From Spirochaetia bacterium (GTDB lineage: Bacteria; Spirochaetota; Spirochaetia; DSM-2461): DNA of 64,000 bases. A program made the position numbers and the translations under genes. The notes beneath the pieces are model-generated. The model was not told where the DNA came from. It made no database searches and saw only the letters and a program-made list of their open reading frames with translations. Positions 5,586 to 23,941 of the stretch are shown piece by piece (the stretch's first letter is position 1; each line of letters starts with the position of its first letter). Location: the NCBI GenBank assembly GCA_963668315.1, contig OY764216.1, forward strand, positions 5,472,001-5,536,000. Reading direction: 5' to 3'.

Positions 5586-8500
5586 ATGAAGTCAAGCACG
5601 TTCTGCCGGCTGTGTTTGATCGCCGGAAGTCTGGCGGGTGTTTTCGGGCTGAATTCGGGCTTGCCCACGCGGGCAGCCGAGTCGACGGAGGAATCACCAC
5701 CGGTCTTGCTGCGTTGGAAGCTCCAACCCGGAGAAGAGCTGCGTTATTCCCTGCAACAGACGGATGTCGGACTGTCTTCTTTCGGCAGCATGCACGAAGA
5801 AGCAACCGAGGAAGGTCGACGTGTTATGAGTGTCGACATGTCCTGGCATGTTGACGAGGTCCAGTCCGAGAAGGTTGATCTCTCCATGCAAGTCCGGCGA
5901 CTTCGATTCTGCATGGAGCAACTCGAAGGAACGACGAATGAGCCAGGTGATGCCTCCAAGTCGCTCTCCGTCCGGTTTGACTCCCAAACGGAGGACTTCA
6001 AGCTCCGCCTCGATCCGTCCAAGCGGCACGAGCCGTTGCTGATCCCACAAAATCAGGCAGGAAATGCCCTGCAAGACTACGCCAGGCTGTGTGGCCAGAA
6101 ATCCCGCTTCACACTCTCTCCTCGCGGAGACGTTCTCCAAGCCGAGTTGCCCCAGGGACTGAAACGCCGGTTCCAACTTGGCGAAGGAGGCGAACAAAGG
6201 TTCCTGGCTCTGCAGTTTGATCCGCTGGCAAGGCTGACCAGTTGTTTTACACAAGGAGACTTCGCGTCCGTGGCCCTGGGGTCGTTCGTTCCCCCTGGCC
6301 TGCAAGTAACAACGAACCGGGGACCAACGGCCTTCTCGCAAATCTCGTCACTGCTATTCGGGTGCCTGCCGAGCCACGCGGTTCGAATCGGCGATCGTTG
6401 GGAGAGGGAGACGTCCATGGAGACGATGTTGTTCAACGCCACCACAACGTCTCATTTCACCTATCAAGGTCTTGTTGAGATGGACGGCCGGGCGATCGAC
6501 AAGATCTCCATGGAGATGGAGTTACATCTCACGCCGTCTCAAATGGTGGCAAACGCGAGCCCTGGAGCACAGCTTGGCGAGTACTGGAAGAAGTTCAATC
6601 AATTCGTGACCTTTCAACTGAATGGCACGTGGTGCTTCGATCGCGATCGAGGGCGTACTGTTGAAATGATGATCGACGTGAACACCCAGTTCCGGGTTGA
6701 CCCGCAAGAATACAGCGGCGCGTATGCATCGGTGATGGCCAACCAGGAACGGCAGTCTCGTCACAGGATTCACATCGCGGAGGGCGCAAGCGGTGAAGAA
6801 GAACTTAAGATGCCCGCCTATCTTTCGGAAAATCGACCGCAATTGGTCGACCTACGAACACAACTGAAGACGAGATACGAGGAACAGTTCCAGGCAGGGC
6901 AGTATGGGCAGGCGGCGAAGACAGCAGACGAGCTCTTTCGACTGCACCAGCGTTTCATCCATTGGACGCGTCAAGGCAATCGGGACAATGGCGACGGGAT
7001 CCCCGCGAACCACTTTCTGAGCCAAGGTTCGGAGTTTCTAGAAGGTTTGGATTGGGCGGCGCAGGCCCTGATGATGCGAGGGGACGCCGAGGCGAAGATG
7101 TCTCGTTTCGCCGAGGCAGAACGCTCCTATCTCGATGCTGAACAGGGGTTACGGTCGCTCCGAGGATGGTGGAGCCCCGAACTGGCCGCCACTTATCAGC
7201 GTCTGGCTGATCTGTCCGCGGAACAGGAACACTGGGCCAAGGCACTCGAATACCAGGAAAGGTCCGCCAATATTCGTGAGACCCTCCTCAAGCCCACTGG
7301 GGAATTAGGGCTGCGGTTTCACGTCGTCATGGATGAAACGAGTGGGGCAGCAGGCCGACGGCCTTTCGGATTCCTGCGGATTTCCGAGGTGGCTCCCGGT
7401 TCCGCGGCGGCTACGACCCTGGGCCTGAAAGTTGGCAACACCATTGACTTCATCCAGGCAGACGGCGGAGTCCTGCTCAACTGCGGCGGCGAAGTCCGGG
7501 GGAACGAGGCAGCGGAGTGCCTCAACAGCTTGCTGAGCGGGCCTGCTGGGACGAAGGTCGCCGTCCGAGCCCATTACGGTCGCAACGCAGCATCCGAGTT
7601 CCAATGGCTCGAACGTGCAGCCCGTGAAGACCACGAGCCACCCTCCGAAGCCGCGGTGAGCAATCTGGTCTCCTGCCTGCTTCGCATGGCCTCGCTCTGC
7701 CGACACGCCGGCGATTTGAAAAGAGCGAGAAGTTCCCTGCTCCGTGCAGCCGATCTGGCCGACAGCGTTGACAATCTGGACGGCGGATCGGCGGCAACTC
7801 GCTACGAGTTGGCATGCGTGTTGCAGGAAGAGGGCCGATCCGAAAAGGCGGAACAGCTCTTTCGGGAATGCGCGGAACAACTGAAAGAAGAGACACAGGA
7901 TCGGGAGTTGTACGCTTGCGTGCTGGCGAGTTGGGCAACATTGGACCAACAGGCAGGCAACACGGAAAAGGCCGTACAACGAATCCGGAAAGCCGCATCG
8001 ATCCGAACGGAGTTATTCGGCTCGAAACATCCGGAAACGGTGGCCACCCATTGGCAACTGGCAAGGTTTCTCCTTGAGTCGAAGGCCGCAAACGAAGCCT
8101 CCCGGGTCCTGGAAGCAACGCTCGATGAAATCGACGACAGTGCGGGCAGCTTCACCCTAAAGGCCAAATGCCTGCAAACATTGGCGGAAGCGAAATGGGC
8201 TCTGCAGGAACGTGACGCAGCGATCGACCTCCTCCGCCAAGCCATGAATCAGGCCGAACTTCAGCGCGGGGCAACCAAGGGAGGGGACTCGGTCCGGGTC
8301 AGCCTGTTTGGCCGATTTGCAGGTGCTTATGAGCGGATGGTCGAGTGGCAGATCGCTCGCCAGCAACCTGCGGAGGCTTACGAGGCCATCGAACGCTCCC
8401 GCGCACGATCCCTTATCGACCATCTGCAGTGGTACGGCGTTGACCTCCTGCAGAGCGTGGACGACTCGAATCTGAATGTCATGCGTCTCTTGGGGGGAGA

Positions 8501-10259
8501 GGAAGACCCGGTGCTCGACTCGCAGGCCTGGCAGCGTACGAAGCAACTGGAAGACACAGCTCAAGACACGGAACGCTACCGCCAACTGTACGCACAGTCG
8601 CCGCTCCGCGGCCGAACGGAACAAGAACAACTCCGCGAGGAAATCGCCGAGCTCCGCCGCGGCGGGAGGCGGCATGCTTCCTACGATGATGAAACTCGTC
8701 TGCAGCGTCTTTCCATTGAATACGCCTCTATGAATCTGCCAAAGGAGCTGCGACGCGATCTGTTCTACCTGTTTCGCGACGAGTTCTCGCGATTGTGCGA
8801 CGAGACCATGCGCATCGGGCGCGAACGCCGGCAATCACGCCCACAGTACTGGGAACAGATCGCGAATAACTGGCATCCTCTCTCGATGGAAGAAGTTGTC
8901 AATCTCGTTCGAAGCAGCAAAGCCCTCTACGTGCAATATCTTGTCGGCTCGGAAGGCACCTACGTGCTCACCGTCGCGCCCGACGGAAAGACGGAAACGC
9001 AAACGCTCCGCATTCGGGATCAGGAAGGCTCCATTCTCGGGGTGCCTGTCGGGCCCTTGACGCGAGAGAAGCTGCGGACAATTCTCCTGGCTCCCGACTG
9101 CGGCGTATGCCGCTTGCTGGCGTCACCGGAAAAGGCACTTGAGGCAACCAGCCGGTTGGCGGCGCTCTGGTCGCTGTTGATTCCCGACCACGCCAAACAG
9201 CTGCTACGTAGCGGCAGTCCTGAAGAGATCATAGTCATCCCCGATGGCCTGCTCTCAATCCTCCCGTTCGAAGCACTGGTGATGAACACGGCTCCCAGTA
9301 CGGAGTACCTTCTCGATTCAGGCATTCCGCTTAGCTACTGCTATTCGGCCACCCTCCTGCAATTGCTTCGGGACCGGCCGGAGGCGACGTCGTTGCCCGG
9401 GGTTGAATCCGTCTTGTCCGTCGCGGACCCCGCGTACACGAATTCAACGCCTGGGGTCGAGGACGGAAACGACCGTAATGGCACACCGGCCACACGTTAC
9501 GTGCTTGCGGGAGGCTCATTGGCCAAGTTGCCTTTCACTGCCGTGGAGTCGCAATGGGTTGCCGACGTCTTTCGCGATGCGGGGAGGCAAACCGAGTCCC
9601 TGCTCGGAAATTCCGCCACGGAGAACGCGGTGCGTCAGAGGATCGCAGGTCGTCGCTACGTCCATTTCGCCTGCCACGGTCTGGTCGATGAATCGGCGGG
9701 AAACCGCTTTGCCGCGTTGGCAGTCACCCCTGGAACATCTGCACGCCTTTCCCGAGGAACCCTGCGGCAGCGTTATGAGAGTCTCATATCGCCCAGACTG
9801 TTTCCGCACCTGGACTCCGCCGGCTTGATGCCTGCTTCGCTTCGCGAGGAGGACGCCTACGGCGATGAGCCGGGCGAGGTGTCCCGTAGCGAATGCGACG
9901 GCTTCATCACTCTCGACGAGATATGCCAACTGAACCTGCACGGGTGTGAACTCGCAATTCTTAGCGCCTGCAATACGAACTTCGGTCCGGAGCAAACCGG
10001 AGAAGGTGTTTGGTCCCTGTCTCGCGGCTTCTTCGTAGCCGGCGCTCGTCGTGTCGTGGCAACCAACTGGTCAGTCGATGATGAGGCCGCCTCAAGTCTC
10101 GTAAGTTACTTTTGTAGTTGCCTCGCTCAGGGCGAAGTGTTTGGAGACGCTCCCAACTACGCGAAATCACTGCATCGCGCGAAGAAATGGCTGCGAGATC
10201 AGAAAGAATGGGAGAGCCCGTCCTTCTGGGCGCCCTTCGTCCTGATGGGGCCTGGCTGA
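5586..10259 (+). CDS. Exported multidomain protein: N-terminal beta domain, TPR repeats with an inserted PDZ-like domain, C-terminal CHAT protease
   Basis: Signal peptide; TPR-like helices; PDZ-like GELGLRF...ISEVAPGSAA...GPAGTKV; ERSRARSL; HFACHG, LSACNT, FWAPFVLMG. Confidence 0.92.
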   Translation: MKSSTFCRLCLIAGSLAGVFGLNSGLPTRAAESTEESPPVLLRWKLQPGEELRYSLQQTDVGLSSFGSMHEEATEEGRRVMSVDMSWHVDEVQSEKVDLSMQVRRLRFCMEQLEGTTNEPGDASKSLSVRFDSQTEDFKLRLDPSKRHEPLLIPQNQAGNALQDYARLCGQKSRFTLSPRGDVLQAELPQGLKRRFQLGEGGEQRFLALQFDPLARLTSCFTQGDFASVALGSFVPPGLQVTTNRGPTAFSQISSLLFGCLPSHAVRIGDRWERETSMETMLFNATTTSHFTYQGLVEMDGRAIDKISMEMELHLTPSQMVANASPGAQLGEYWKKFNQFVTFQLNGTWCFDRDRGRTVEMMIDVNTQFRVDPQEYSGAYASVMANQERQSRHRIHIAEGASGEEELKMPAYLSENRPQLVDLRTQLKTRYEEQFQAGQYGQAAKTADELFRLHQRFIHWTRQGNRDNGDGIPANHFLSQGSEFLEGLDWAAQALMMRGDAEAKMSRFAEAERSYLDAEQGLRSLRGWWSPELAATYQRLADLSAEQEHWAKALEYQERSANIRETLLKPTGELGLRFHVVMDETSGAAGRRPFGFLRISEVAPGSAAATTLGLKVGNTIDFIQADGGVLLNCGGEVRGNEAAECLNSLLSGPAGTKVAVRAHYGRNAASEFQWLERAAREDHEPPSEAAVSNLVSCLLRMASLCRHAGDLKRARSSLLRAADLADSVDNLDGGSAATRYELACVLQEEGRSEKAEQLFRECAEQLKEETQDRELYACVLASWATLDQQAGNTEKAVQRIRKAASIRTELFGSKHPETVATHWQLARFLLESKAANEASRVLEATLDEIDDSAGSFTLKAKCLQTLAEAKWALQERDAAIDLLRQAMNQAELQRGATKGGDSVRVSLFGRFAGAYERMVEWQIARQQPAEAYEAIERSRARSLIDHLQWYGVDLLQSVDDSNLNVMRLLGGEEDPVLDSQAWQRTKQLEDTAQDTERYRQLYAQSPLRGRTEQEQLREEIAELRRGGRRHASYDDETRLQRLSIEYASMNLPKELRRDLFYLFRDEFSRLCDETMRIGRERRQSRPQYWEQIANNWHPLSMEEVVNLVRSSKALYVQYLVGSEGTYVLTVAPDGKTETQTLRIRDQEGSILGVPVGPLTREKLRTILLAPDCGVCRLLASPEKALEATSRLAALWSLLIPDHAKQLLRSGSPEEIIVIPDGLLSILPFEALVMNTAPSTEYLLDSGIPLSYCYSATLLQLLRDRPEATSLPGVESVLSVADPAYTNSTPGVEDGNDRNGTPATRYVLAGGSLAKLPFTAVESQWVADVFRDAGRQTESLLGNSATENAVRQRIAGRRYVHFACHGLVDESAGNRFAALAVTPGTSARLSRGTLRQRYESLISPRLFPHLDSAGLMPASLREEDAYGDEPGEVSRSECDGFITLDEICQLNLHGCELAILSACNTNFGPEQTGEGVWSLSRGFFVAGARRVVATNWSVDDEAASSLVSYFCSCLAQGEVFGDAPNYAKSLHRAKKWLRDQKEWESPSFWAPFVLMGPG

Positions 10260-10415
10260 ACAAACTTAACACGGAATGCGAAACGGAATGTGATTCCTGT
10301 TGTCCCTGCAAGGCATAGAACAATGTGGTTGCAACAATCTGGTTGTGTTTTAAGAACAGAGGGAGCTCGCCCAGGCGGATCTTCCACGTGCGTAAGCCGT
10401 TATGCACGGAAGACG

Positions 10416-12487
10416 ATGCCGTTGTGCGTACCTCTTTGGCTGGCCTTGATCCTGCTGCTCACGGCAGAAAGCCAGGCTCAAGTGACAATACGCGGTACGC
10501 GACTGATTGCCCCGCCTGAGGAAGATGTCACGGCTGTCGATCTGCAGGGTGCCGAGGCGGTCGTCAGAAGTCCCACCCTCTATCACTCGATTGCATTTCC
10601 GAAAGAGCCCAACCGTCTTGTGACGGTGGATCGCGACATCGAAATCTGGGATCTGGCCTCGCGCAAAAAGGTGGACCGCTGGAAACTGGACGATCCGGCA
10701 AATGCCCGCGACGATTCAACAAATCTGTCGAGAATCATGTCGCAACTTCAATCTGGGGCAACACGTTCCCTTGCCGTGTCGCGTGACGGGCAGTTCCTGG
10801 CATGTCTTGGGGCGCAACTGTGCGTGTTTCATGCGGCGACGGGCAAAAACCGTCTGGAAAGGCGCCCTGGCTGCCGCCGTCTTCCAGGATAACCAAACGC
10901 CCATTGCCTTCTGGCCCACGCGACCGTGGCTGGTAACCCAGGGCCCGGGCAGCGGTGGAACGGTTGTCGATTTCCAGACGGGTGACCAGGTTGCGGTGGT
11001 CGGGCCACCACGTCCCAGGGCCGGTTCCTCCGAACCTCGCCTGGCTGTGTCGGGGCACTATGGCCGAACTTGCGCGGTCTCTCCAACGGGGCGTGACCTG
11101 GCGTTCATCGATTTCGAGATCTTTCCAGGCGGCTGCGTCCGGTTCTGGGAACCGAATGAAAAGCAACTCCTCACCAAGGCCATACGGACCTCCGAAGACA
11201 TCGCCTCCATTGCCTATTCGCCCGACGGCAAGACGATTGCCGCGCTGGTCGGGAACGGGGATTGTCATGACATCGTGTTGTTCGACGCAGAGTCATGCCG
11301 GCGGTACGCCACCCTTGCCCATTCACGCAGCACTCGCCACCTGGTCTTCTCCCCCGACGGGCGCTGGCTGGCGACGCACTCGGCTGGAGATGTTCTCATT
11401 TGGGATGTGAACAGTCGTCAGATCATTGCGGTGTTGACCGGTGCTGTCGGCTGGAGTCCCTGCATAGCCTTCTCTCCCGATTCCCAGTGGTTTGGCGCGG
11501 CGGACGGCGGCGTGTACCTCTGGTCGCTGGCGGAGATCGCAACTGACAAGATCGAGGCGGTCGACACGAAACCACCGCTGGTTGGGCACGCCCACAATGC
11601 GCCGGTTACCGATCTCCACTTCGCGCCGGCGTCCAACACACTCTATTCCGTTGGGCAGGACGGCGCGTTGAACGCCTGGAACTTACCCGGCGGCGACGCC
11701 TGCTGGTCGCAACAGGAGGAACGGCTTGAACTAGCCCGTGTCACCGCTTCTTCCGATGGAAAGCAGCTTATTGCCGCCGGGGCCAGGCGCGGCCGGGGTG
11801 TGATTCGATTTCACGATCCGCAACACGGGACGCTTGGACGCGAAATGACGCGCCCCGCGGGCATGGTGTTAGCGCTCGCGTTGGCTCCAGGCGACCGGCA
11901 ACTTGCCTTCGGAACGAGCGAAGGGGAGATCGCCGTTTACAGCATGGAAGACGAAGGGATCCAGGACACGTTCCAGGCCAAGGGCGCCCCGATTTGGAGT
12001 CTCGATTACTCGCCCGACGGACGCCTGCTGGCCTCTGCCGGCTGGACACGACATGTCGAGTTCAACGATCATACAACTCTGGGACACATCCGCAGGAACT
12101 ATCGTTGGGAAACTCGCAGCTCTCCAGGGAACCGTCTACGTCGTGCGGTTTTCTCCTGACGGAAAGCAATTGGCATCCGGAGGAACGGATGGCGTCGTCC
12201 GCGTGTGGGACGTATCTTCCAGAAGGCTCATCAAGAAGATGGGCGATACCAGCGGAAGTGTCTTCGACTTGGCGTTCCAGCCAGAGGGAGATGCACTCAT
12301 TTTTGCGGGAGCGGACGGTCTTCTCCACCGTTGGCCGCTCAAGACGCGCTCTGCCCGGCAGCTATTGCCCGGACTGGGCGGCTACGGTTTCACCGTGGAA
12401 ATCATGCCCGATGGCCTGGCTGTCCTGGCGGCTGGCGCCGATCGCTCGCTTCATCGCAGGACATTGCCGACACTCTCTGCAGAATGA
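10416..12487 (+). pseudogene. Exported WD40-repeat protein split over three frames (frameshifts near 10845-10849 and 12045-12075)
   Basis: WD40 repeats (IAYSPDGK, LVFSPDGR, VRFSPDGK...VRVWDV) continue across ORFs 10290-10892, 10702-12159 and 11903-12487; removing one A from the A5 run joins ...ATGK to TVWKG... Confidence 0.8.
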
Positions 12488-12533
12488 GGCAGGGGCCATC
12501 CACCGGATGTGCCACTGTGAGGGAACCTTGATC

Positions 12534-13378
12534 ATGAGAAGAACATCCTTGATTCTGGCCTGTCTACTTATCCTCTATGCCGGATGCGCATCAAGCCTGA
12601 ACGCCCAAGATGCCGAGACGCGAAAGCTCCAACACCCCAAATGGCGTTTTGGCGTTCCGGTGACGAAGGAGAACGTTCAGTCGCGCTCCCATATTGCAGT
12701 TGTATCTCCCGATGAGCGCATGATCGCGGTAAGAGTGTATCCCCCACACAACGTTGAGTGCATCGTTCTCTTCGACAGGAAGACCGGACGCGAGATCCGA
12801 CGACTTGCGACACGAGAGGAAGTGGGCCACCAATTCGGTTGGTTGAGTTTCTCGCCCGATTCGAAGCACCTATTGAGTTGGTCCGGCCAAGAGTTCCGGT
12901 ATTGGTCCGTTGAGACGGGTGAGGTTCTTCTGAAGCACGGTATCCGGCGCAAAGGTCCGATTGCCGGCCCTCCCATCTTCCACCCGACGGGCAAGTACTT
13001 CGTCTCGTGTGTTGGGAGTGGCGCCCAAGGCAACCTCTTGCTCTTCTGGGATCGTTCCACGCTGAAACACGTCGGATCGTTCAATCCGAGAGGGGAATAC
13101 CCTTGGTTCGACTGTGATCAAGCAAGGGAGATGAGCTGTCGTACGAAAAGCCTGCATGGGAGCACGGCGCATTCTGCAAGGCGGTTCTGGAAGCTCTCGC
13201 GGGAAAAGCAGATGCTGACGACAATGGGAAGGTCACCATCAAAGAGCTCGTGGACTATGCTCAGCTGCGAGTGGCCGAACTAACCGAAGATCGTCAGCAT
13301 CCGCATCTGCCGAATTTGAACGATTTCGCGCCGGACCTTGTACTTGCTCACGTCGTTGAACAGGCGGGGTCGCCTTAG
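12534..13378 (+). pseudogene. Internally deleted WD40 + caspase gene
   Basis: Signal peptide and WD40-like repeats 12534-~13110, then an out-of-frame caspase C-terminal segment at 13118-13378: SSKGDELSYEKPAWEHGAFCKAVLEALAGKADADDNGKVTIKELVDYAQLRVAELTEDRQHP...*. Confidence 0.75.
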
Positions 13379-13823
13379 ATAGTGGGCGGGATTTTGTCCG
13401 CGCCGGCTTCAAGCTAAGCGGTCCACGGCAGAAGGCGGGATGCGAATTGCCCCGCCTCCGCCCGGATCTTCTCAATCGCGATTGTGTCCCGATCGCGCTC
13501 ACAGTCCAGCACGATCGCGGCGCTGTGCGGTGACCCAGAAACCGATCATCACACGGTTCCCTTCTTTCCCCGAATGCATCGGGAACGCGCGCAATCCGTT
13601 CTGCCGACGGGACTATTCACGGTAAGCAACGGGAGGTCGGTTCCACCTCGACGTTGCTAGCGGCGAGACAAGCTTCTCGCTTCTTCCCCGGAACAGGCCG
13701 GGGCGGAGAGTCGGCAATCCAACCTCGTTGCCATGGGGCAGCGTTTTCATTCAGGCTGGCGCCGTCTTACTCGAGCCTGCTGCAACGGCACGTCCCCCAT
13801 TCACCGGCGTGAAAGGAAAAATC

Positions 13824-13955
13824 ATGAAACCGCTTGGCACGATTCTCATGTACTGTCTTGTCTGCGGACTTTATTGCCTGATGCTGTCGGCAGTAATGAC
13901 GCTCTGCCTGATGGCACTCTCCTTGTCCTATTGCCTGCCGCCGGTTGTCAACTGA
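13824..13955 (+). CDS. Possible 43-aa hydrophobic Cys-rich small protein
   Basis: GAAAGGA upstream of ATG; MKPLGTILMYCLVCGLYCLMLSAVMTLCLMALSLSYCLPPVVN; no family recognised. Confidence 0.3.
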   Translation: MKPLGTILMYCLVCGLYCLMLSAVMTLCLMALSLSYCLPPVVN

Positions 13956-14108
13956 TTGCACCGTGGACACGGCGGCCGTTTTCTCTTCTTCGGCGCGCAA
14001 TATCCCATACCGGCGGGACTATTCCTAGCAAGCAGCAGTTGAGCCGAAAAAGCCTCCCTCGAAACGGGGGCGGCCGGGCTGACATCAAACGAAAACAACT
14101 CCCTCCTT

Positions 14109-15269
14109 ATGAAAGCAAGAGAAACCATGACTGCGACCACGATAGAACGCCGGAAAACCGCTCGCCGCTCGTGCACGCTGATTGTCACGCATCGGTGCAA
14201 CCTGAACTGCCGCTACTGCTACGAAACCAACAAGTCGAACCGCAAAATGACGGTCGACACGGCCAAGGAAATCATCGAGCGCGTGTTGACCACCAACCCG
14301 GGATGCGAAGTGGCGATCGACTTCCTCGGCGGCGAGCCGCTCATGGAGTTCGAGCTCATCCGCGAGGTCGCCGAATGGACCTGGAGCCGCCCCTGGCCCG
14401 TCCCCTACATCATGTTTGCGACGACCAACGGGACGCTGCTCAACGACGAGATGAAACAGTGGTTCCGCGAGAACCGGGATCGATTCCACCTCGGGCTGAG
14501 CCTTGACGGCACTCCCGAGATGCAGATCACCAACCGCGGCTGCTCCTACGACGCCATGGACCTCGACTACTTCCTTAACACCTGGCCTTCCCAAGGCGTC
14601 AAAATGACGATCTCCTGCGAAACGGTTGGCACCCTCGCCGAGGGAGTCATCTATCTCCAGGAAAAGGGTTTTGACGTCCAGGCCACCGTGGGCTACGGAA
14701 TGCCCTGGTCCGACGACACCATCGCCGTGTTTGCCCAGCAGCTCCGCGAACTCGGACAGTACTATCTCGCCCACCCCAACGTCGCCCCGATCCGCTTGCT
14801 CGACCTCGGCCTGGAGTACGTCCTCGGAGAGCGGAAGCAAAAGCGGAAGTTCTGCGGCACGGGAACCCACATGACGACCTTCGACGTCGACGGCCACGCC
14901 TACCCGTGCCAGATGTTCACGCCCCTTGTGATGAACCGGTCGCAGATTGAAGGCCTTGCCGTAATTGACTTCCACGACGAACAGGCTGCCGTCGACGCCA
15001 AGTGCGACACCTGCCTGCTCCACGACATCTGCCCCACATGCTACGGATTCAACTACAAATACACCGGCAACATCGCCACCCGCGAGGACGTGATGTGCCG
15101 GCTCTTCAAAGTCCAGGTCCTGCAATACTGCTGGTTCGAATTCGAACGGCTGCAGGCCAAGGCAAGGCCCCTGAGCCGTGACGACTACCGGAAGGCGAAA
15201 GGCATCCTCAAGGTCCACGAAATGCTCACCCGGTCAGACATCTCGGAGACCGGCTGTGCGGTCGCCTGA
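14109..15269 (+). CDS. Radical SAM/SPASM peptide maturase
   Basis: CNLNCRYC (CxxxCxxC), FLGGEPL, TTNGTLL, SLDG; SPASM-type cysteines FCGTG, YPCQ, CDTCLLHDICPTCYG, MCR; directly upstream of Cys-repeat peptides; alternative start at 14127. Confidence 0.95.
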   Translation: MKARETMTATTIERRKTARRSCTLIVTHRCNLNCRYCYETNKSNRKMTVDTAKEIIERVLTTNPGCEVAIDFLGGEPLMEFELIREVAEWTWSRPWPVPYIMFATTNGTLLNDEMKQWFRENRDRFHLGLSLDGTPEMQITNRGCSYDAMDLDYFLNTWPSQGVKMTISCETVGTLAEGVIYLQEKGFDVQATVGYGMPWSDDTIAVFAQQLRELGQYYLAHPNVAPIRLLDLGLEYVLGERKQKRKFCGTGTHMTTFDVDGHAYPCQMFTPLVMNRSQIEGLAVIDFHDEQAAVDAKCDTCLLHDICPTCYGFNYKYTGNIATREDVMCRLFKVQVLQYCWFEFERLQAKARPLSRDDYRKAKGILKVHEMLTRSDISETGCAVA

Positions 15270-15389
15270 TCGGCCATGCCGCCAAGGCGGCCGAAGCACG
15301 TTGACCGCAATACTCGTTCTGTGTTGTGTGCGGCGAATGGTTTTCGTCGCGGTGCGTATCTTCAACCCACGTTTTGAAAGGGATTCGTG

Positions 15390-15575
15390 ATGACTGCTGT
15401 TCTGGAAATGAAAGACCTCGCCCTGTTGTCGGACTGCGTTCACGAGTACGAACACGAATTCGGAGTCGACATCGACGACGCCGAGCTTCCCGAGGCCGTC
15501 GACTGCAACGGCGGATGCGACGGCACTTGTGCCTGGACCTGCGGCGGCACGTGCAGCGGCACGATGCAGTTCTAG
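15390..15575 (+). CDS. RiPP precursor 1 (CXXX-repeat core CNGGCDGTCAWTCGGTCSGTMQF)
   Basis: RBS GAAAGGGA; acidic leader plus five evenly spaced Cys; present in three copies. Confidence 0.9.
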   Translation: MTAVLEMKDLALLSDCVHEYEHEFGVDIDDAELPEAVDCNGGCDGTCAWTCGGTCSGTMQF

Positions 15576-15600
15576 GCGACACCGCTTCCTGCCGACATCC

Positions 15601-15641
15601 GGTTGTTGGTGGCAAGAACAGCTTCTTTACCGCCAACAACC
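15601..15641 (+). other. Conserved stem-loop after precursor 1
   Basis: GGTTGTTGGTGGCAAG...CTTTACCGCCAACAACC; no U-tract follows. Confidence 0.7.
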
Positions 15642-15691
15642 AGTGCCGGCTGCTTACTCAAGAGAAAACCACGTTTTGAAAGGGATTCGTG

Positions 15692-15877
15692 ATGACTGCT
15701 GTTTTAGAAAGGAAAGACCTCGCCCTGTTGTCGGACTGCGTTCACGAGTACGAACACGAATTCGGAGTCGATATCGACGACGCCGAGCTTCCGGAAGCCG
15801 TCGACTGCAACGGCGGATGCGACGGCACTTGTGCCTGGACCTGCGGCGGCACGTGCAGCGGCACAATGCAGTTCTAG
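15692..15877 (+). CDS. RiPP precursor 2 (core identical to precursor 1)
   Basis: Same RBS; one M-to-R change in the leader, other changes synonymous. Confidence 0.9.
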   Translation: MTAVLERKDLALLSDCVHEYEHEFGVDIDDAELPEAVDCNGGCDGTCAWTCGGTCSGTMQF

Positions 15878-15903
15878 GCGAGCTCTCCCCTCGGCCGGCC
15901 TCC

Positions 15904-15941
15904 GGTTGTTGGGGGCAAGAACGCCTTTGTCGCCAACAACC
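15904..15941 (+). other. Conserved stem-loop after precursor 2
   Basis: GGTTGTTGGGGGCAAG...TTTGTCGCCAACAACC, flanked by a GGCCGGC/GCCGGCC outer stem. Confidence 0.7.
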
Positions 15942-15992
15942 TCCGCCGGCCAGTCACCCTAAGTGCGAACCACATTCAAGAAGGGGTCCGTG

Positions 15993-16178
15993 ATGACTGC
16001 TGTTTTGGAAATGGAAGATCTCGCGTTGTTGTCAGACTGCGTTCATGAGTACGAACACGAATTCGGAGTCAGCATCAACGACGCCGTGCTTCCCGAAGCC
16101 GCCGGCTGCAACGGTGGATGCGACGGTACCTGCGCCTGGAGCTGCCAAGCCATGTGCACCGTCGAGATGAAGTTCTAG
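15993..16178 (+). CDS. RiPP precursor 3 (divergent core CNGGCDGTCAWSCQAMCTVEMKF)
   Basis: RBS GAAGGGG; conserved leader and Cys spacing, altered C-terminal inter-Cys residues. Confidence 0.9.
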   Translation: MTAVLEMEDLALLSDCVHEYEHEFGVSINDAVLPEAAGCNGGCDGTCAWSCQAMCTVEMKF

Positions 16179-16205
16179 GCGAAACGAGTCCTCACCGACG
16201 CACCC

Positions 16206-16243
16206 GGTTGTTGGCGGCAAGGCCACCTTCGCCGCCAGCAACC
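16206..16243 (+). other. Conserved stem-loop after precursor 3
   Basis: GGTTGTTGGCGGCAAGG...CCTTCGCCGCCAGCAACC. Confidence 0.7.
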
Positions 16244-16313
16244 GAGCCTTACCCCTTCCGAATGTCGCTCTTCTCAACTCAGTGTTAACCACCGCATATC
16301 CGGAGTTGCATCC

Positions 16314-18146
16314 ATGACAAAGCGGCCCGATCACGCGTCTGACTGCCCCAAACCGCCCAAAACCGGCAACTCCGACCGGGGCGATGCGACCGATGCCGAA
16401 CGAATGTCAGCCTGGACCAGCCTGGCCTGGATCGTCGGCCGCATCCACGGCAAACCACTTCTGCTCGCTCTCTTGATTGCTTCTCAGGCAGCAACCGGAC
16501 TGGTGCCGTGGTGCCTCGGTCGGGTTGTCGACAGCCTGGGAACTCATCGCACCGGCAACCCCATTGCCATGGCACTGGCCGTCCTCGGCGTCTGCAGCCT
16601 TGGGGGCGTGGTCCTTCGTCGGCTCTTCGAACACCGGTTTCGCACGGCAATGCGACGCGTCGAACTCGCCCTCAGAAACGAAGTTTGGGATACGCTGCAA
16701 ATGCTCTCCCTTCGCACAATCGAAGAGCTTCCCCAGGGCGCGACGCTCAGCAAGATACTCCGTGACACGTCAATCGTTGCCCAAGCAGTTCAGCCCCTGA
16801 TCCGGGCGGCCTTCGCCGCGTCGCTGATGGGCTGCGTTGCCATCATCTCCGCCGGCGCGAAAGCGCCGCTGGTGGCTTTGGCCCTGGCTGCCATGTTGCC
16901 CTTGTACTATTGGCTCCTGCGCAGAGACGTCGCAAACGTTCAGACCGCGAATCACGGATTTCGACTCGGCATCGAAAGGCTTTCCGAAAACGTCTCGCAG
17001 CAGTTGGCAATGCTCCCCTTTCTGCGAGCGACGGCCGCATCCGGCGACGTCCGCCCGATCGTTGACGACGCCATGCGAGAGACGCGCCGCGCCGGCGAGA
17101 ACCTTGACGGGGCATCCGTCGACATGGAGTTTCGACTCGGTTTCCTGCTTACCGGCAGCCAATTTGCCGTTCTGGCCTTGTGCGGCTGGCTGGCATGGAA
17201 CGGCACGCTCACTGTCGGCGACGTGGTCGCCTACTACATGCTGTGTAACTTCGCCTTGGGAGCGTTTATTCAGGCCGTCGGCCTGCTGCCCAACCTCCAT
17301 GCCGTTCAGGAATCATGCCATTCGCTGCAGGAACTGCTCACCCGTCCCGGCGAGGAATGCGACGAAGGACGTCTCCAAATCGCAAACGTCCGTGGCGGTG
17401 TCCGCATTCAGAACCTCGAATTTCGCTACGACCACCACGGAGCAGAAATCCTCTCCCATGTGTCGCTGTCCATCGGACCTCGTGAAACCGTCGCGGTTGT
17501 CGGCCCAAGCGGCAGTGGAAAAACCACGCTGGCACGACTTCTGCTCGGATACGACCATCCAACAGCCGGGACGCTCGAAATCGGCGGTCACGACATCCGC
17601 AATCTCCACCGCGACGGTCTCCGCCGAAAGATCGCCTTGGTGCCCCAGGATGTCGAACTCTTTCGGGGAACGCTCCGCGACAACATCACGCTGCTTTCTC
17701 CGAAGGTGAGTGAGGAACAACTGGCCCGAGCCATCGACATTGCAGGGCTGAAGAGAGTCTTCCATCATCATCCGGCCGGGTTGGACACCGTTGTTGGTCC
17801 CGGCGGCGTTGAATTGTCCGGCGGAGAACGTCAGCGGGTTGCCATCGCCAGGGCAGTTGTCCGAGATGCCGACCTGATCATCCTGGACGAAATGGCCCAC
17901 AGGCTCGACGTGGCTGCCCGCGATGAAATCCTGCAGAAGATGCGAGCCTACTGCAAAACGAAGAGCGTGCTTCTGATCACCCACCAGTCGGAAATGCTCG
18001 ACATGGCCGATCGGGTCTTCGTACTCTGTGATGGGAATGTGACTCAAGTCGACAACCGTACTGCATGCACCGGCTTCGCTCCCCTGGTCAAGAGTCGCAA
18101 GCAAGAAGAGAGATACGGCATTTCTGACGCGCCGCTTTGCTCCTAG
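16314..18146 (+). CDS. ABC exporter, fused transmembrane and ATPase domains, no C39 peptidase domain
   Basis: N-terminal TM helices; Walker A GPSGSGKT, LSGGERQR, Walker B LIILDE, H-loop LITHQ. Confidence 0.93.
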   Translation: MTKRPDHASDCPKPPKTGNSDRGDATDAERMSAWTSLAWIVGRIHGKPLLLALLIASQAATGLVPWCLGRVVDSLGTHRTGNPIAMALAVLGVCSLGGVVLRRLFEHRFRTAMRRVELALRNEVWDTLQMLSLRTIEELPQGATLSKILRDTSIVAQAVQPLIRAAFAASLMGCVAIISAGAKAPLVALALAAMLPLYYWLLRRDVANVQTANHGFRLGIERLSENVSQQLAMLPFLRATAASGDVRPIVDDAMRETRRAGENLDGASVDMEFRLGFLLTGSQFAVLALCGWLAWNGTLTVGDVVAYYMLCNFALGAFIQAVGLLPNLHAVQESCHSLQELLTRPGEECDEGRLQIANVRGGVRIQNLEFRYDHHGAEILSHVSLSIGPRETVAVVGPSGSGKTTLARLLLGYDHPTAGTLEIGGHDIRNLHRDGLRRKIALVPQDVELFRGTLRDNITLLSPKVSEEQLARAIDIAGLKRVFHHHPAGLDTVVGPGGVELSGGERQRVAIARAVVRDADLIILDEMAHRLDVAARDEILQKMRAYCKTKSVLLITHQSEMLDMADRVFVLCDGNVTQVDNRTACTGFAPLVKSRKQEERYGISDAPLCS

Positions 18147-18457: not shown

Positions 18458-19048
18458 ATGGCACGGCTTCTGGAGCAGCGGAAACGGTTCACGAAAAACG
18501 CGATCTATGACGCCGCCATTGGGATCCTCACCCACGAGGGGTTCGATGCAATGACCATGGAACGTGTCGCTGAGGTTGCGGGCGTCGCCAAGGGCAGTGT
18601 CTACAACTACTTCCCCAACAAGCAGGAGCTTGCTCGCTTCGTTTTCACCAACACTATCGATCCACTCGCCGAAACCATCGAAGGGATTGCGAATCGGGAC
18701 CTACCGGCCCTCGAGAAACTCCGCCAGATTCTGCGGACGTGGTTCCAGTACGTGAACGAGCATCGCGGGGTGGTCAATATGCTGTTCAACGACCACGCAT
18801 TTCAGAAGCTGTTGAAGATGGTAGACCCGCCACCGAGGAACAAGCCAATCGGCCGCTTTGACGCGATTATCCGACAGGGAATCGAAGAAGGCGTTTTTCG
18901 CGCCGTTGATGCTCGCGAATACGCGAGGTTGTTGTTCGTCGTCGTTTGCGAAACTTGCGACGAACACGTTGCCCGACAAGAGACGTGGGGCATCGAAGAT
19001 TCGGTCGACCTTGTCATGGACTTCTTCCTTCATGGCGCCGGCAAGTAA
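18458..19048 (+). CDS. TetR/AcrR family transcriptional regulator
   Basis: RBS AGGAGG; HTH GFDAMTMERVAEVAGVAKGSVYNYFPNKQEL. Confidence 0.95.
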   Translation: MARLLEQRKRFTKNAIYDAAIGILTHEGFDAMTMERVAEVAGVAKGSVYNYFPNKQELARFVFTNTIDPLAETIEGIANRDLPALEKLRQILRTWFQYVNEHRGVVNMLFNDHAFQKLLKMVDPPPRNKPIGRFDAIIRQGIEEGVFRAVDAREYARLLFVVVCETCDEHVARQETWGIEDSVDLVMDFFLHGAGK

Positions 19049-19304
19049 TCGAGGGGAAGGATGGACCACGGGAAGAACCGGCATCGCAAGCGAGCAGATG
19101 TCTATTGGAGGTCGCCAATCTGACGGTCGGTTCGTGGTCCACGTTCGAACCGCTGTGCCCTCTCAGCGGCCCCCAATTCAAGGCTCAGCAGCCACCTTGA
19201 CTGAGACGTGATTCGCAGTGATCTTGCGGCGTTGCGTCCCACGGCGCACAGGCTGCGCAAAATGATCGGTCTTTCAATACACCGCGAAAAAACGGAACGC
19301 TTCA

Positions 19305-20720
19305 TTGAAGAAGGAGTATCGTGTGAATCGGAAGAGGAAAGGTGCCTTATCGTGCAGAATTCTCTGGATTGTCAGCGCGGCATTCGCTGCCGCTGTTGTC
19401 ATTGGAGTCGGGCTACCGAGGGCAGGTTCGCATCTGTTCTTCTCCAAGACGAACGAGCCCGGCACATCCGCGATGAAAACAGGACTTCGTCGGGTGCTGA
19501 CCGAGACGGTTTCGGACCACGCCGAAGCCGATTTGACGACGTTTCCGGGAGCAACCAAGGCTTCCCAAGCGTCTGACCTGGCATTTCGTGTCGGGGGACC
19601 GTTGATTGAGGTCAAGGTGAAGCCTGGAGATCACGTCTCACGGGGCGACGTGCTTATGCGCATCGATCCACGGGATTTCGAGACAGCAGCCAAGGCTGCC
19701 GAGGCAACCCTTGTCTCGGCGCAAGCCAAGCTCAAGGCCATGAAAGAGGGGGCGCGCGAGGAGGATATCCGCGTCCTGGAGGCGAAGCTTGCTGCCGGGA
19801 AGGCGCGTCGTGACTATGTGGAAAAGAACCACGTCCGCTACGGGGAACTTGTCAAGAAGAACGCGATTGCACGGCAGCAGATGGACAGCATCGAGGCTGA
19901 ACTCGAAGCCGCCGTTGAGGACGTTCGTGCTCTTGAGAAGGAGTTGGAAAAGGCCCAGAGAGGCGCTCGCCTTGAGGACATCCAGGCCATGGAAGCGGAC
20001 ATCCGTGGAATGGAAGCACAGCTTCAAGCGGCCCGGGACGCGTTGGAGGACACCCGGCTGCTGGCCCCTTTTGACGGTACGGTCACACAACAACTCGTCG
20101 AGAACCATGAACAGGTTGCCGCCGGCCAGGTTGTGGTCGGCATGCACAACGTCTCCACAATCGAAATTGAGGTCGACCTGCCCGAAAAAGAACTCGTCCA
20201 TCGCCGTCCAGGGGACGGATTTGCTGCATCCGTACGTTTTGCAGCGGTAGGCAACCGTCTCTTCGAAGCGACGCTTCACGAAATGAACACCAAAGCCGAT
20301 CAGGCAACAAAGACCTACAAAGTGACCTTTGCGATGCCCGCCCCCAACGATGTCACGATTCTCCCGGGCATGGTGGCGGAAGTTCAACTTGAATCACGCG
20401 CCAATGAAGACTCCGGTGGGCCCAAGGCGATGGTTCCCGCCGCGGCCGTCATGGGCAATCAACACGGCAACCGATTCGTTTGGGTCGTTGCCGACGATTC
20501 GACCGTTCAGCATCGCAACGTGGAACTCGGCTGGCTCTCGTCGAACAACCGCTACATCGTCCAATCGGGTATTCACCAAGGCGAACGCGTGGTCATCTCC
20601 GGGGCAGCGTTTCTCCACAATGGCGAACAGGTACTCGCGGAAGACACAGACACGACACCGAAAACGGCTTCTCACAACCAGTTGAAACCTCGCCCCTCGG
20701 CACAGCCACATGGCTGTTAA
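19305..20720 (+). CDS. RND efflux periplasmic adaptor (membrane fusion protein)
   Basis: N-terminal anchor, DLAFRVGGPLIEVKVKPGD, long coiled-coil hairpin, LLAPFDGTV, ILPGMVAEV; start uncertain. Confidence 0.93.
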   Translation: MKKEYRVNRKRKGALSCRILWIVSAAFAAAVVIGVGLPRAGSHLFFSKTNEPGTSAMKTGLRRVLTETVSDHAEADLTTFPGATKASQASDLAFRVGGPLIEVKVKPGDHVSRGDVLMRIDPRDFETAAKAAEATLVSAQAKLKAMKEGAREEDIRVLEAKLAAGKARRDYVEKNHVRYGELVKKNAIARQQMDSIEAELEAAVEDVRALEKELEKAQRGARLEDIQAMEADIRGMEAQLQAARDALEDTRLLAPFDGTVTQQLVENHEQVAAGQVVVGMHNVSTIEIEVDLPEKELVHRRPGDGFAASVRFAAVGNRLFEATLHEMNTKADQATKTYKVTFAMPAPNDVTILPGMVAEVQLESRANEDSGGPKAMVPAAAVMGNQHGNRFVWVVADDSTVQHRNVELGWLSSNNRYIVQSGIHQGERVVISGAAFLHNGEQVLAEDTDTTPKTASHNQLKPRPSAQPHGC

Positions 20721-20878
20721 GAGGTGGCAGAAAGACCGCATCCAACCTTCGCCACCGAGAACCGTCGCGACGCACGCCCCAAATACCGGTGAGTTGTCTT
20801 TGCGCTGATGCTGGATGCAGCCCTCGACACGTCACCGCCACGCGGAGCACCGCGGACTGACAGAAACAGGCAGAATTC

Positions 20879-23800
20879 GTGAATCCCGCCAAGATCGCAC
20901 TCAACAACCGAATATCGGTCATCGTACTGACACTCGTAGTCGCAGTTGTCGGCATCCGTTCCTACTTTCGTCTTGGGAGGCTGGAGAATCCGGATTTCGT
21001 TATTAAGACAGCTCTGATCTACACGGCCTACCCCGGTGCGTCTGCCGAGGAAGTCGAGCAAGAAGTGACCGACGTCATCGAGGAGGCCATCCAGTCCCTC
21101 GGGGAACTCGATGAAATCAGTTCCACCTCCATGGACGGCCTGTCGGTGGTCGAAGCGGAGATGAAGTCCAAATTCTCCGGGAACCGATTGCAGCAAGTTT
21201 GGGACAAACTGCGCCGGAAAGTGAGCGATGCCCAGGGATCTCTCCCACCAGGGGCCGGACCGTCTGTTGTGAACGACGATTTCGGCGACGTCTACGGGCT
21301 TTTCTACGCCATCTCGGGAGACGAGTACAGTTATGAAGCGTTGAAGGAGTATGGCGAGGACATCAAGAAGGAACTGCTCCTTTGTGACGACGTGGCGAAA
21401 ATCGACTTCTGGGGACTTCAGCCGGAAGTCATCTACATCGAAGTGTCCCAGGAACGGATGGCCGAACTTGGAATCTCACCGCAATCGATCGTGAACATCG
21501 TGCGGTCCCAGAACGTCGTACAGCCTTCAGGAAAGGTGCGAGTCGACGGCGACTACATTCGCATCGAGCCGACGGGAGACTTCAGTTCCGAACAACGTAT
21601 TGGCGACCTCCTGATCACCCCCACGGTGACGGGCGGCACGATTCGCCTCAGTGACATCGCCACCATACGACGCGGCTATGCCGATCCGCCCCGCCAATTG
21701 ATGCGTTTCAACGGCCACCACTGCGTCGGCATGGGCATTTCGACCGTGGTCGGAGGGAACGCAGTGACCATGGCGAATTCCGTCAAGGCGAGATTGAAGG
21801 AGCTCGCGTCCCTTCGCCCGCCCGGAATGAACATCGACACCATTTACGATCAGGGCGGCCTTGTCGACAAAGCGGTGAACGGTTTTGTACTCAACCTGGC
21901 CGAGTCCGTTGTGATCGTCGTCGTCCTTCTGCTCCTGTTTATGGGACTGCGGAGCGGCCTGATCATTGGGGCGGTGCTGTTCCTCACCATTCTGGCAACG
22001 TTCGTCTACATGGAAGTTGCCGGGATCGCCTTGCAGAAAATCTCTCTTGGTGCACTGATCATTGCGTTGGGGATGCTTGTCGACAACGCCATCGTTATCG
22101 TCGAGGGTGTGCTCATCAAGTCGCAGCAGGGGATCGACCGAGTGACTGCGGCAATCCAGACCGTTGGCCAGACGCAGATTCCTCTGCTCGGCGCAACGTT
22201 CATCGCCGCCTTGGCTTTTGCCGCGATCGGGTTTGCTCCCGGAAATACCGGTGAATTCTGCTCCTCCCTCTTCTGGGTCCTCGGCATTTCCTTGCTGCTC
22301 AGTTGGGTGACGGCGGTGAGCGTGACCCCGCTCTTGTGTGTCTGGTTCTTGAAGACACCTGCCGCAACGAACAACGACCCCTACGACAAGTTCTTCTTCC
22401 GCGTGTACCGCCGAGTGCTGCATGCCACACTGCATTTCTGGCCTGTAACACTGGGCGCCATCGTCGCGGTGGTTGTTGCGGCGGGAATCGCATTCCGATT
22501 CGTACCCGTGTTCTTCTTTCCCGATTCGACACAACCTTTCTTCCTGCTCGACTTCTATCACGCGGAGGGAACCCATATCGAGAAGACCTCCGAGAGCCTG
22601 CAGAGAATCGAGGAGTTTCTCAGCAAGGAGCCGTCGGTTGTTCGCACGACCACCTTCGTGGGGCAAGGGGCCCTGCGATTCATCTTGTCCTATTCTCCCG
22701 AAGACCCGAACAGCAGTTACGGCCAGATTGTGGTCACCTTTTCCGACGCGGCGGGGATGGAGGCTGCCCGGGAACGCCTCGCGACTTTTCTTCGTGAGAG
22801 TTTCGAAGATGCGGAGTGGAAAATCGAGCGAGTCCCCGAGGGTCCAACCTACGACTACGACATCGAAGCGAGATTTCGCGGACCGGACAAGGCCGTGCTG
22901 CATGACCTCGCGGATCAGGCCAAGGAGATCATGAGACGCTTTCCAACGGACAACGTTCGTGACAACTGGCGCAATCCGGTATGTGTTCTTCGGCCCGAGT
23001 TCGCCGAATCGGTGGCGAGAAAGACCGGCTTGACACAAAGCGATCTGGCCTATGTTCTGGCGATGAACTTCGGTGGACAACAGATCGGCATCTACCGCGA
23101 GAACAACGATCTTCTACCCATCACCTTGCGATCTCCCGCCGACCAGCATGATAGCTATGCCGATGCGCGACGCATCCATGCATGGAGCCAGATTCATGGG
23201 CGCGCCGTGCCTCTTGACGTGATCGTGAGCGAGTGGACCAAGAACTCGGTATGGGAAGACTCCTTGCTCAAACGGCGTTTCCGTCAACGGGAGATCACGG
23301 CCCAATGCAACGCACGAGGCGGATATGCATCCGCCCTCTTCCAACAAATAGGGCCCCTCATTGAGGGCATCGAACTACCACCAGGATACACACTCCGGTG
23401 GGGTGGCGAGTACGAAACGGCAATGGAAGGTCAGGAGCCCCTAGCGGCCATGTTTCCCCTTTGCCTCCTCACGATGTTTCTCATCCTGATCCTGATGTTC
23501 AACGCGTTGCGAGAACCGCTGATCATCTTCCTTTGCCTGCCCTTGATCGTTGTCGGCGTTGCCGCCGGGCTGCTCCTCAGTGGTTTGCCATTCGGGTTCA
23601 TGGCGATCCTGGGCTTCCTGGGACTAACGGGCATGTTGATCAAGAACGCGATCGTGCTGATCGACGAAATCGACGCCAACAAAGCGTTGGGCCTTGCGCC
23701 GTACAGATCCGTCCTGGATGCCGCCACAAGCCGTCTCAGACCGGTCACCATGGCATCGGGAACAACGGTCCTGGGAATGACGCCTTTGCTCTGGGATCCG

Positions 23801-23941
23801 TTCTATTGCAGTATGGGAGCAACCGTTGCCGGCGGGCTGATCGGCTCGACAATTCTCGTCCTGCTGGTGGTCCCCTTATTCTACGTCTTGTTTTTCCGTA
23901 TCAAGCCGCAGTGCCCGTTGTCTCCGCCGAAATCTGCCTGA
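20879..23941 (+). CDS. RND efflux permease (AcrB/AcrD/AcrF family)
   Basis: 1020 aa; YPGASAEEVEQEVT, GMLVDNAIVIVE, IKNAIVLID, RLRPVTM. Confidence 0.96.
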   Translation: MNPAKIALNNRISVIVLTLVVAVVGIRSYFRLGRLENPDFVIKTALIYTAYPGASAEEVEQEVTDVIEEAIQSLGELDEISSTSMDGLSVVEAEMKSKFSGNRLQQVWDKLRRKVSDAQGSLPPGAGPSVVNDDFGDVYGLFYAISGDEYSYEALKEYGEDIKKELLLCDDVAKIDFWGLQPEVIYIEVSQERMAELGISPQSIVNIVRSQNVVQPSGKVRVDGDYIRIEPTGDFSSEQRIGDLLITPTVTGGTIRLSDIATIRRGYADPPRQLMRFNGHHCVGMGISTVVGGNAVTMANSVKARLKELASLRPPGMNIDTIYDQGGLVDKAVNGFVLNLAESVVIVVVLLLLFMGLRSGLIIGAVLFLTILATFVYMEVAGIALQKISLGALIIALGMLVDNAIVIVEGVLIKSQQGIDRVTAAIQTVGQTQIPLLGATFIAALAFAAIGFAPGNTGEFCSSLFWVLGISLLLSWVTAVSVTPLLCVWFLKTPAATNNDPYDKFFFRVYRRVLHATLHFWPVTLGAIVAVVVAAGIAFRFVPVFFFPDSTQPFFLLDFYHAEGTHIEKTSESLQRIEEFLSKEPSVVRTTTFVGQGALRFILSYSPEDPNSSYGQIVVTFSDAAGMEAARERLATFLRESFEDAEWKIERVPEGPTYDYDIEARFRGPDKAVLHDLADQAKEIMRRFPTDNVRDNWRNPVCVLRPEFAESVARKTGLTQSDLAYVLAMNFGGQQIGIYRENNDLLPITLRSPADQHDSYADARRIHAWSQIHGRAVPLDVIVSEWTKNSVWEDSLLKRRFRQREITAQCNARGGYASALFQQIGPLIEGIELPPGYTLRWGGEYETAMEGQEPLAAMFPLCLLTMFLILILMFNALREPLIIFLCLPLIVVGVAAGLLLSGLPFGFMAILGFLGLTGMLIKNAIVLIDEIDANKALGLAPYRSVLDAATSRLRPVTMASGTTVLGMTPLLWDPFYCSMGATVAGGLIGSTILVLLVVPLFYVLFFRIKPQCPLSPPKSA

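Follow-up and report, generated by a model that had tools for sequence, protein, structure and literature searches.

What does a gene for a radical S-adenosylmethionine (rSAM) enzyme make when it is followed by three tandem genes for cysteine-rich peptides, and in which organism? The question is raised by a 64,000-nucleotide stretch, here called the window, covering positions 5,472,001 to 5,536,000 of contig OY764216.1 (assembly GCA_963668315.1), deposited as Spirochaetia bacterium. An earlier reading, made from the letters of the DNA and referred to below as the sequence-only reading, had proposed a new candidate RiPP system (RiPPs are peptides made on the ribosome and modified after translation), composed of an rSAM enzyme with a SPASM domain, three 61-aa precursors with ribosome-binding sites and C-x3 cores (Cys at every fourth residue), and an ATP-binding cassette (ABC) exporter. 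All of these genes are present as described:

14127..15269, + strand: radical SAM/SPASM maturase, 380 aa (386 aa from an upstream ATG at 14109)
15390..15575, + strand: precursor 1, 61 aa, leader acidic and helical (helix at 7-24), Cys at 39/43/47/51/55 in the core
15692..15877, + strand: precursor 2, 61 aa, one leader residue different from precursor 1
15993..16178, + strand: precursor 3, 61 aa, 77% identity to precursor 1, Cys positions unchanged, C-terminal part of the core diverged
16314..18146, + strand: ABC exporter, 610 aa, transmembrane and ATPase regions, accessory in the family

From comparative sequence evidence, we put at roughly one in two the probability that these genes form a planctomycete RiPP pathway in which the enzyme would join core Cys residues by thioethers to the residue three places downstream, Cys(i)→(i+3).

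Translation from the ATG at 14127 yields the enzyme as entered in the protein database, with 380 aa. Pfam assigns Radical_SAM to the enzyme and ABC_membrane and ABC_tran to the exporter, with no peptidase domain among the exporter domains listed, and gives no match above cut-off for the three precursors. Strong Shine-Dalgarno sequences (GAAAGGGA or GAAGGGG) stand ahead of the precursors, which are copies of a tandem unit of ~302 nt with Cys at 16, 39, 43, 47, 51 and 55 in all three. Between precursors 1 and 2 there are 5 synonymous codon changes and 1 that is non-synonymous; between precursors 1 and 3 there are 11 synonymous and 14 non-synonymous changes, with all Cys retained. The three copies are real paralogues. 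Nearly all of the region's sequence words (0.98) were present in four public runs, all from one study. In six-frame translation, the 5.43-Mb main chromosome has a single five-Cys C-x3 array, whereas the 196-kb segment containing the window has six, three of them being the precursor genes. Three further Cys-x3 arrays at ~5,467,700-5,468,060 of the contig are six-frame open reading frames (ORFs) inside a DNA tandem repeat and are only putatively coding, and at ~478,000, in the spirochaete part, a Cys-His-Ser-Ala repeat adjoins another rSAM-like match.

The host is not the spirochaete named in the deposit. The genome is one 5.62-Mb contig of 51% GC, of which the last ~196 kb, containing the window, has ~60% GC, a different tetranucleotide profile and no tRNA. 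The main part carries three spirochaete FlaA genes, and the two PF07596 matches on the contig, a family that we take to be a planctomycete hallmark, both lie in the tail. At C1:5,428,913/914 (L147:8913/8914), independent contigs drawn from public runs break, both sides running on into other sequence; the whole window lies beyond this break. Read depth on its two sides is 182.7 versus 17.2 in X1, 60.1 versus 4.3 in X3, which is the same sample as X1, and about 0-8 versus 56-101 in X4. Given these breaks and unequal depths, the deposited contig is a chimera in which 196 kb of planctomycete DNA has been joined to the end of a spirochaete chromosome, and the cluster belongs to the planctomycete, which bears out the planctomycete-like host proposed in the sequence-only reading. 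Taken as deposited, the contig would credit a spirochaete with this cluster and with 196 kb of planctomycete genes.

The enzyme has the features of a radical SAM/SPASM protein, with a CX3CX2C motif at 24/28/31 and seven SPASM Cys at 243, 261, 293, 296, 302, 305 and 324. Against TIGR04115, the maturase model of the CXXX-repeat class, residues 20-340 align to positions 2-356 of 359, but with 128.3 bits versus a cut-off of 350. All 33 tested relatives at or above 33% identity fall below that cut-off as well (best 156), and the two loci that exceed it (384 and 469 bits) are only 26-27% identical and branch apart in an enzyme tree whose root support is weak. The PapB model (NF047865) gives 131.7 bits versus a cut-off of 340, with the 33 family relatives at 158 or below, and the GggB equivalog model 49.4 bits versus 650. 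Because the enzyme and its relatives miss the TIGR04115 and PapB cut-offs, we place it in a clade that is sister to the CXXX-repeat class as bioinformatics has defined it; by these sequence scores it is neither a member of the TIGR04115 family nor a new class. The clade is large, with 420 enzymes in the family, and the closest named relatives come from metagenome-assembled genomes of Thermoguttaceae (55% identity) and Kiritimatiellales (53%). The pairing of an rSAM/SPASM maturase with cognate CXXX-repeat precursors, proposed in the sequence-only reading, is supported: Cys-x3 repeat targets, such as accompany TIGR04115 maturases, adjoin the enzyme, which itself scores below the TIGR04115 cut-off. 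A 46%-identical rSAM gene has an in-frame TAG within its first C-terminal helix (L162:2524-2526) with the frame continuing beyond it, and no precursor was found near it. Three TIGR04115-type loci (L134, L141 and L143) encode 210-250-aa Cys-repeat proteins among genes that by eye resemble phage baseplate or tail-fibre genes.

To count linkage between enzyme and peptide, loci with at least 600 nt on both sides were searched with a loose filter for same-strand precursor-like ORFs, with the antisense strand as control. Such ORFs accompany the enzyme in 7/7 loci at or above 49% identity, 18/23 at 40-49%, 25/54 at 33-40% and 6/29 below 33%, versus 2, 1, 7 and 1 in the antisense control of the same bins; a strict four-Cys pattern is present in 52/146 loci, the window's own included. 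Enzyme and precursor thus travel together, and the association of homologous peptides with this rSAM clade, on which the sequence-only reading had made its proposal depend, holds. The closest relatives are a two-gene unit. An ABC exporter lies close to the rSAM gene in 14/145 loci (93 with at least 3 kb downstream), so that the exporter, although present here, is not a constant part of the system as the sequence-only reading had it. Among the other genes that recur beside it at loci of at least 33% identity, a second rSAM occurs at 21 loci, an M42 peptidase at 9 and a ClpP-like protease at 8. Six loci (L023, L083, L090, L091, L097 and L103) combine two rSAM paralogues, a precursor and an ABC exporter, mostly with a ClpP-like protease; this subgroup has a fuller pathway, and the mature product would be better sought there.

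The leaders are acidic (net charge -9 to -11), with a predicted helix at 7-24 (whole-model pLDDT 60). A phmmer search returned 13 matches, made up of eight short peptides, precursor 3 included, and five long repeat proteins, and a profile built from 28 precursors matched 155 of 444 candidates. The motif [LIVM]xx[YF]xxx[HNYF]G recurs in 112/117 new precursors, and the leader Cys16 and His residues are not conserved in relatives. The leader that had seemed unrecognizable is therefore the conserved helix of a family with 155 relatives, and no curated model describes it. The window peptides score 16.1, 16.1 and 19.2 bits against TIGR04114 (cut-off 20, reached by 3/26 family precursors), at most 19.2 against TIGR04117 (cut-off 50) and at most 10.9 against TIGR04118 (cut-off 35), with 0/26 relatives passing the latter two; several family precursors do match PF27846. 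As the clade escapes curated models, those precursors that bear a source name are annotated as "hypothetical protein".

The cores carry the evidence on chemistry. For this comparison 75 precursors were retained after 20 candidates (false positives, duplicates and TIGR04115-type loci) and three near-duplicates were removed by hand. Across their 388 C-x3-C units, the second position after Cys (+2) is Gly in 59%, and the third (+3) is S in 28%, T in 21%, G in 16%, D in 11% and N in 7%. After the last Cys, G still occupies +2 in 34/73 and S/T +3 in 29/73, and the pattern is not seen before the first Cys (11/75 for G, 14/75 for S/T). Since the pattern runs past the last Cys and not ahead of the first, the unit begins with Cys and reads C-x-G-[S/T/G]. 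The same picture comes from a second set, of 117 precursors, though the profile that found them favors it. The window units are CNGG, CDGT, CAWT, CGGT and CSGT, with CAWS, CQAM and CTVE in precursor 3, and the Cys number ranges from 3 to 25 across relatives. Read downstream, this repeat favors tandem Cys(i)→(i+3) thioethers, and if each Cys bonds to +3, a Gly acceptor requires attachment at Cα. From the sequences, thioether formation of some kind is likely and stands as the best account of the chemistry, as had been proposed; the i→i+3 register is somewhat favored, and attachment at Cα falls just short of an even prospect. Among the acceptors named in the sequence-only reading, Ser and Thr appear likely, while Asp/Asn are minor at +3 (18% and 9% in the two sets) and Gly, which had not been named, is common. 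The cross-link to the single Trp suggested there finds no support, Trp making up 2% of +2 positions.

How such an enzyme would recognize its substrate is a separate matter, as it has no fused N-terminal RiPP recognition element (RRE), unlike the RRE-dependent thioether maturases CteB, CrpC and SkfB: 23 residues precede CX3CX2C and the structure model begins at the barrel. In relatives this stretch has a median of 21 residues and reaches at least 70 in only 4/109. PqqD, a trans-acting RRE, has no match in the 196-kb planctomycete segment, which is part of that genome only, and no recurring small partner protein was found at the closest related loci. The enzyme ends in two helices, 321-344 and 351-373, the last of which aligned to none of the top structures. 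Over 49 enzyme-peptide pairs, leader charge is anti-correlated with the charge of the C-terminal enzyme helices (rho -0.62), and |rho| is at most 0.29 for every 40-residue enzyme window that ends ahead of residue 346. The correlation is -0.45 without the nine closest loci (n 40), -0.55 after GC correction, and -0.68 (p 0.09) in seven later pairs. In tree contrasts 30 were of opposite and 15 of same sign (p 0.036), and one internal enzyme window gave r +0.34. These values are suggestive of the extra C-terminal helix as a possible leader docking site, with a signal that weakens after tree correction.

In the proposed pathway, the rSAM enzyme would bind the helical leader without an RRE, tentatively through the basic C-terminal helix pair. 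A 5'-deoxyadenosyl radical would abstract a hydrogen at the +3 position relative to a core Cys, and the thioether would be formed by this Cys, which would occupy the open site on auxiliary cluster I. The product would contain at most five consecutive non-nested four-residue rings (C39-G42, C43-T46, C47-T/S50, C51-T/M54 and C55-T/E58), up to -10 Da in all. An unlinked protease would remove the leader and the ABC transporter would export the ~23-residue core, with the three gene copies and their 3' hairpins raising output and yielding two core variants. The gene content, the family membership, the enzyme-peptide linkage and the cluster-ligand pattern on which this builds are direct observations. 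Several points weigh against the proposal. The +2/+3 preference could stem from backbone turns and not from acceptors, the GggB model matches weakly (49 bits) and ranthipeptide enzymes match best (PapB model, 131.7 bits), and p-values over related peptides are overstated. Linkage drops to 25/54 loci at 33-40% identity; of 13 new loci, a count that leaves out four rows repeating L103 and L129, seven have a precursor and 6/13 have none by the filter used. There is no protease gene in this locus, the exporter is found in 0/5 of the closest loci with at least 3 kb downstream, and independent tree contrasts for the leader charge give r -0.20 (p 0.18). The i→i+3 bonds of CrpC, moreover, are read by its authors as ranthionines in the available part of their report (PMC13692751).

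That last point belongs to the strongest alternative, in which the same pair makes short ranthipeptide-type rings, with sulfur bonded to Cβ or Cγ of side chains (Thr Cγ, Asp/Asn Cβ) downstream or upstream and Gly units left unmodified. Ranthisynthases (the PapB model and CteB) are the best profile and structure matches, and the active-site residues are similar to those of CteB. Acceptor geometry argues otherwise: G, S or A, which have no Cγ, occupy +3 in 183/388 units and in 288/525 units of the second set. PapB follows a Cys→Asp(i+4) rule on precursors with Cys-x3-Asp motifs, which is inapplicable where i+4 is the next Cys. As for upstream bonding, N-x-x-C and D-x-x-C are present in the window cores, but D/N stands at the upstream position in just 42/388 units. 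The accessible text of two reports gives precedents, with NxxcA linking Cys23 to the upstream Asn20 (PMC8326336) and CrpC yielding i→i+3 ranthionines on D, M and V (PMC13692751), and the CteB-like active-site residues also occur in the sactisynthases GggB and QmpB (PMC10288494). Overall we consider this chemistry unlikely.

The cysteines could instead be mostly free for metal or Fe-S binding, as in metallothioneins, with the rSAM enzyme performing epimerization or Cys oxidation or modifying a single Cys. Cys-x3 spacing with small residues would suit metal binding, and the closest relatives consist of two genes only, with neither an exporter nor a protease. The second structural match is anSME, a Cys-oxidizing enzyme, and Crp proteins are tied to growth on pyrite in the part of PMC13692751 that was available. 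Yet the family, with anything from 3 to 25 Cys per peptide, conserves no fixed metal site, the enzyme is clearly most similar to thioether synthases, and exporters and peptidases of the kind usual for secreted RiPPs are present at related loci. We consider this account improbable. A long-range nested hairpin of the subtilosin or thuricin type, with Cys bonded to distant C-terminal residues, is very improbable here, hairpins being nonetheless the form of most known sactipeptides (PMC8326336, in the portion available). Generalizing from the i→i+3 proposal, the clade may comprise RRE-free thioether maturases whose own C-terminal helix pair grips a charge-complementary helical leader and converts (C-x-G-S/T)n into chains in which 3 to >20 four-residue sactionine rings follow one another; such enzymes would be spread over many bacterial phyla and occur in one archaeal genome. 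We regard this extension as rather doubtful on present sequence comparisons; if true, it would provide a polymer-like sactipeptide topology, together with a programmable enzyme of compact size for stapling peptides.

Two kinds of non-coding element accompany the genes, the first of which, a conserved hairpin 3' of each precursor, the sequence-only reading had not included:

15600..15641, + strand: hairpin after precursor 1, z -3.9
15903..15941, + strand: hairpin after precursor 2, z -2.2
16206..16244, + strand: hairpin after precursor 3, z -4.6
14014..14024, + strand: 11-nt motif ~110 nt 5' of the rSAM gene, possible promoter or operator; also at 13608 and 18329

The hairpins have no U-tract and no Rfam match, and they probably stabilize the transcript. 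The three motif copies stand before a 43-aa ORF, the rSAM gene and a TetR gene and are the only exact ones in the 196-kb segment; with one mismatch there are four matches versus 0.7 expected. The motif is not conserved across related loci; its sharing hints that the downstream TetR and efflux genes may be co-regulated with the cluster. Those genes (18458-23941, +), directly 3' of the cluster, encode a TetR regulator, a membrane-fusion protein and an AcrB-family resistance-nodulation-division (RND) pump, and are not a recurring neighbor across related loci. Directly upstream of the rSAM gene, the 43-aa hydrophobic ORF (13824-13955, +) has five Cys and a good Shine-Dalgarno sequence, with no family match and no relative among 145 related loci. 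Large TPR/CHAT-domain and WD40 genes, several of them duplicated, lie ahead of the cluster at 5586-13380 and upstream to 5,448,000 of the contig.

The cores have no net positive charge, vary among relatives and are accompanied by exporters and peptidases in some of the family. With SCIFF (quorum sensing) and streptosactin as analogues, as far as the available portions of those reports go, the most likely role, at even odds, is that of a secreted signal or a narrow-spectrum competition peptide rather than a cationic, membrane-lytic antibiotic. The main functional alternative is metal binding, given the exporter-less closest relatives. The searchable literature, which includes few subscription journals, yielded no chemical characterization of the CXXX-repeat class and no description of this clade, and the available parts of PMC10352776 and PMC9062424 do not cover it. 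To that extent the system is a new form of a known but chemically uncharacterized kind; it is not unique, the CXXX-repeat targets and maturases being curated annotation-database families already and the window clade a widespread branch of them. The sequence analysis yields a specific and cheap test, namely five steps of -2 Da, the i→i+3 register, and Cα versus Cβ/γ attachment, and names a candidate leader-binding element for a thioether enzyme predicted to work without an RRE. With 380 aa in the enzyme and 61 aa in the substrates, the system is an easy starting point.

Among known systems, the CXXX-repeat system (TIGR04115; targets TIGR04114/04117/04118; PF27846) shares the Cys at every fourth residue and the rSAM/SPASM neighbor, but the window enzyme is far below the TIGR04115 cut-off and the helical leader lies outside the curated models. 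The ranthipeptide pairs CteB/CteA (SCIFF) and PapB/PapA (freyrasin) provide the best sequence and fold matches, CteB being the best fold match, at an identity of ~21-25%. In contrast to CteB, the window family is missing the ~90 N-terminal residues that form its RRE, and the Cys/Asp motif of PapB substrates is absent from the window precursors, where Cys stands at i+4, with Met in its place after the last Cys. ChlB, reportedly a 375-aa rSAM enzyme solved with its leader (PDB 9gm3), is said to make cyclophanes and not thioethers. CrpA/CrpC of Methanococcus voltae (TIGR04463, which is not among the best 25 models listed for the window enzyme) resembles the window system in the ligand layout of auxiliary clusters I and II, repeated Cys motifs, four-residue thioether motifs and varied acceptors; unlike the window enzyme, CrpC carries an RRE, and its substrate is a large protein containing a 17-residue repeat, according to the accessible part of PMC13692751. 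Streptosactin (GggA/GggB) differs in leader, host and genetic context and has two rings, Cys25-Ser28 and Cys31-Gly34, versus up to five proposed here and more in relatives, but as a non-nested type II sactipeptide whose tandem four-residue rings join Cys(i) to the Cα of an i+3 residue, Ser or Gly (PMC8172795, in the portion available), it matches the family repeat in spacing and in the types of acceptor and has the topology that we propose for the window peptides.

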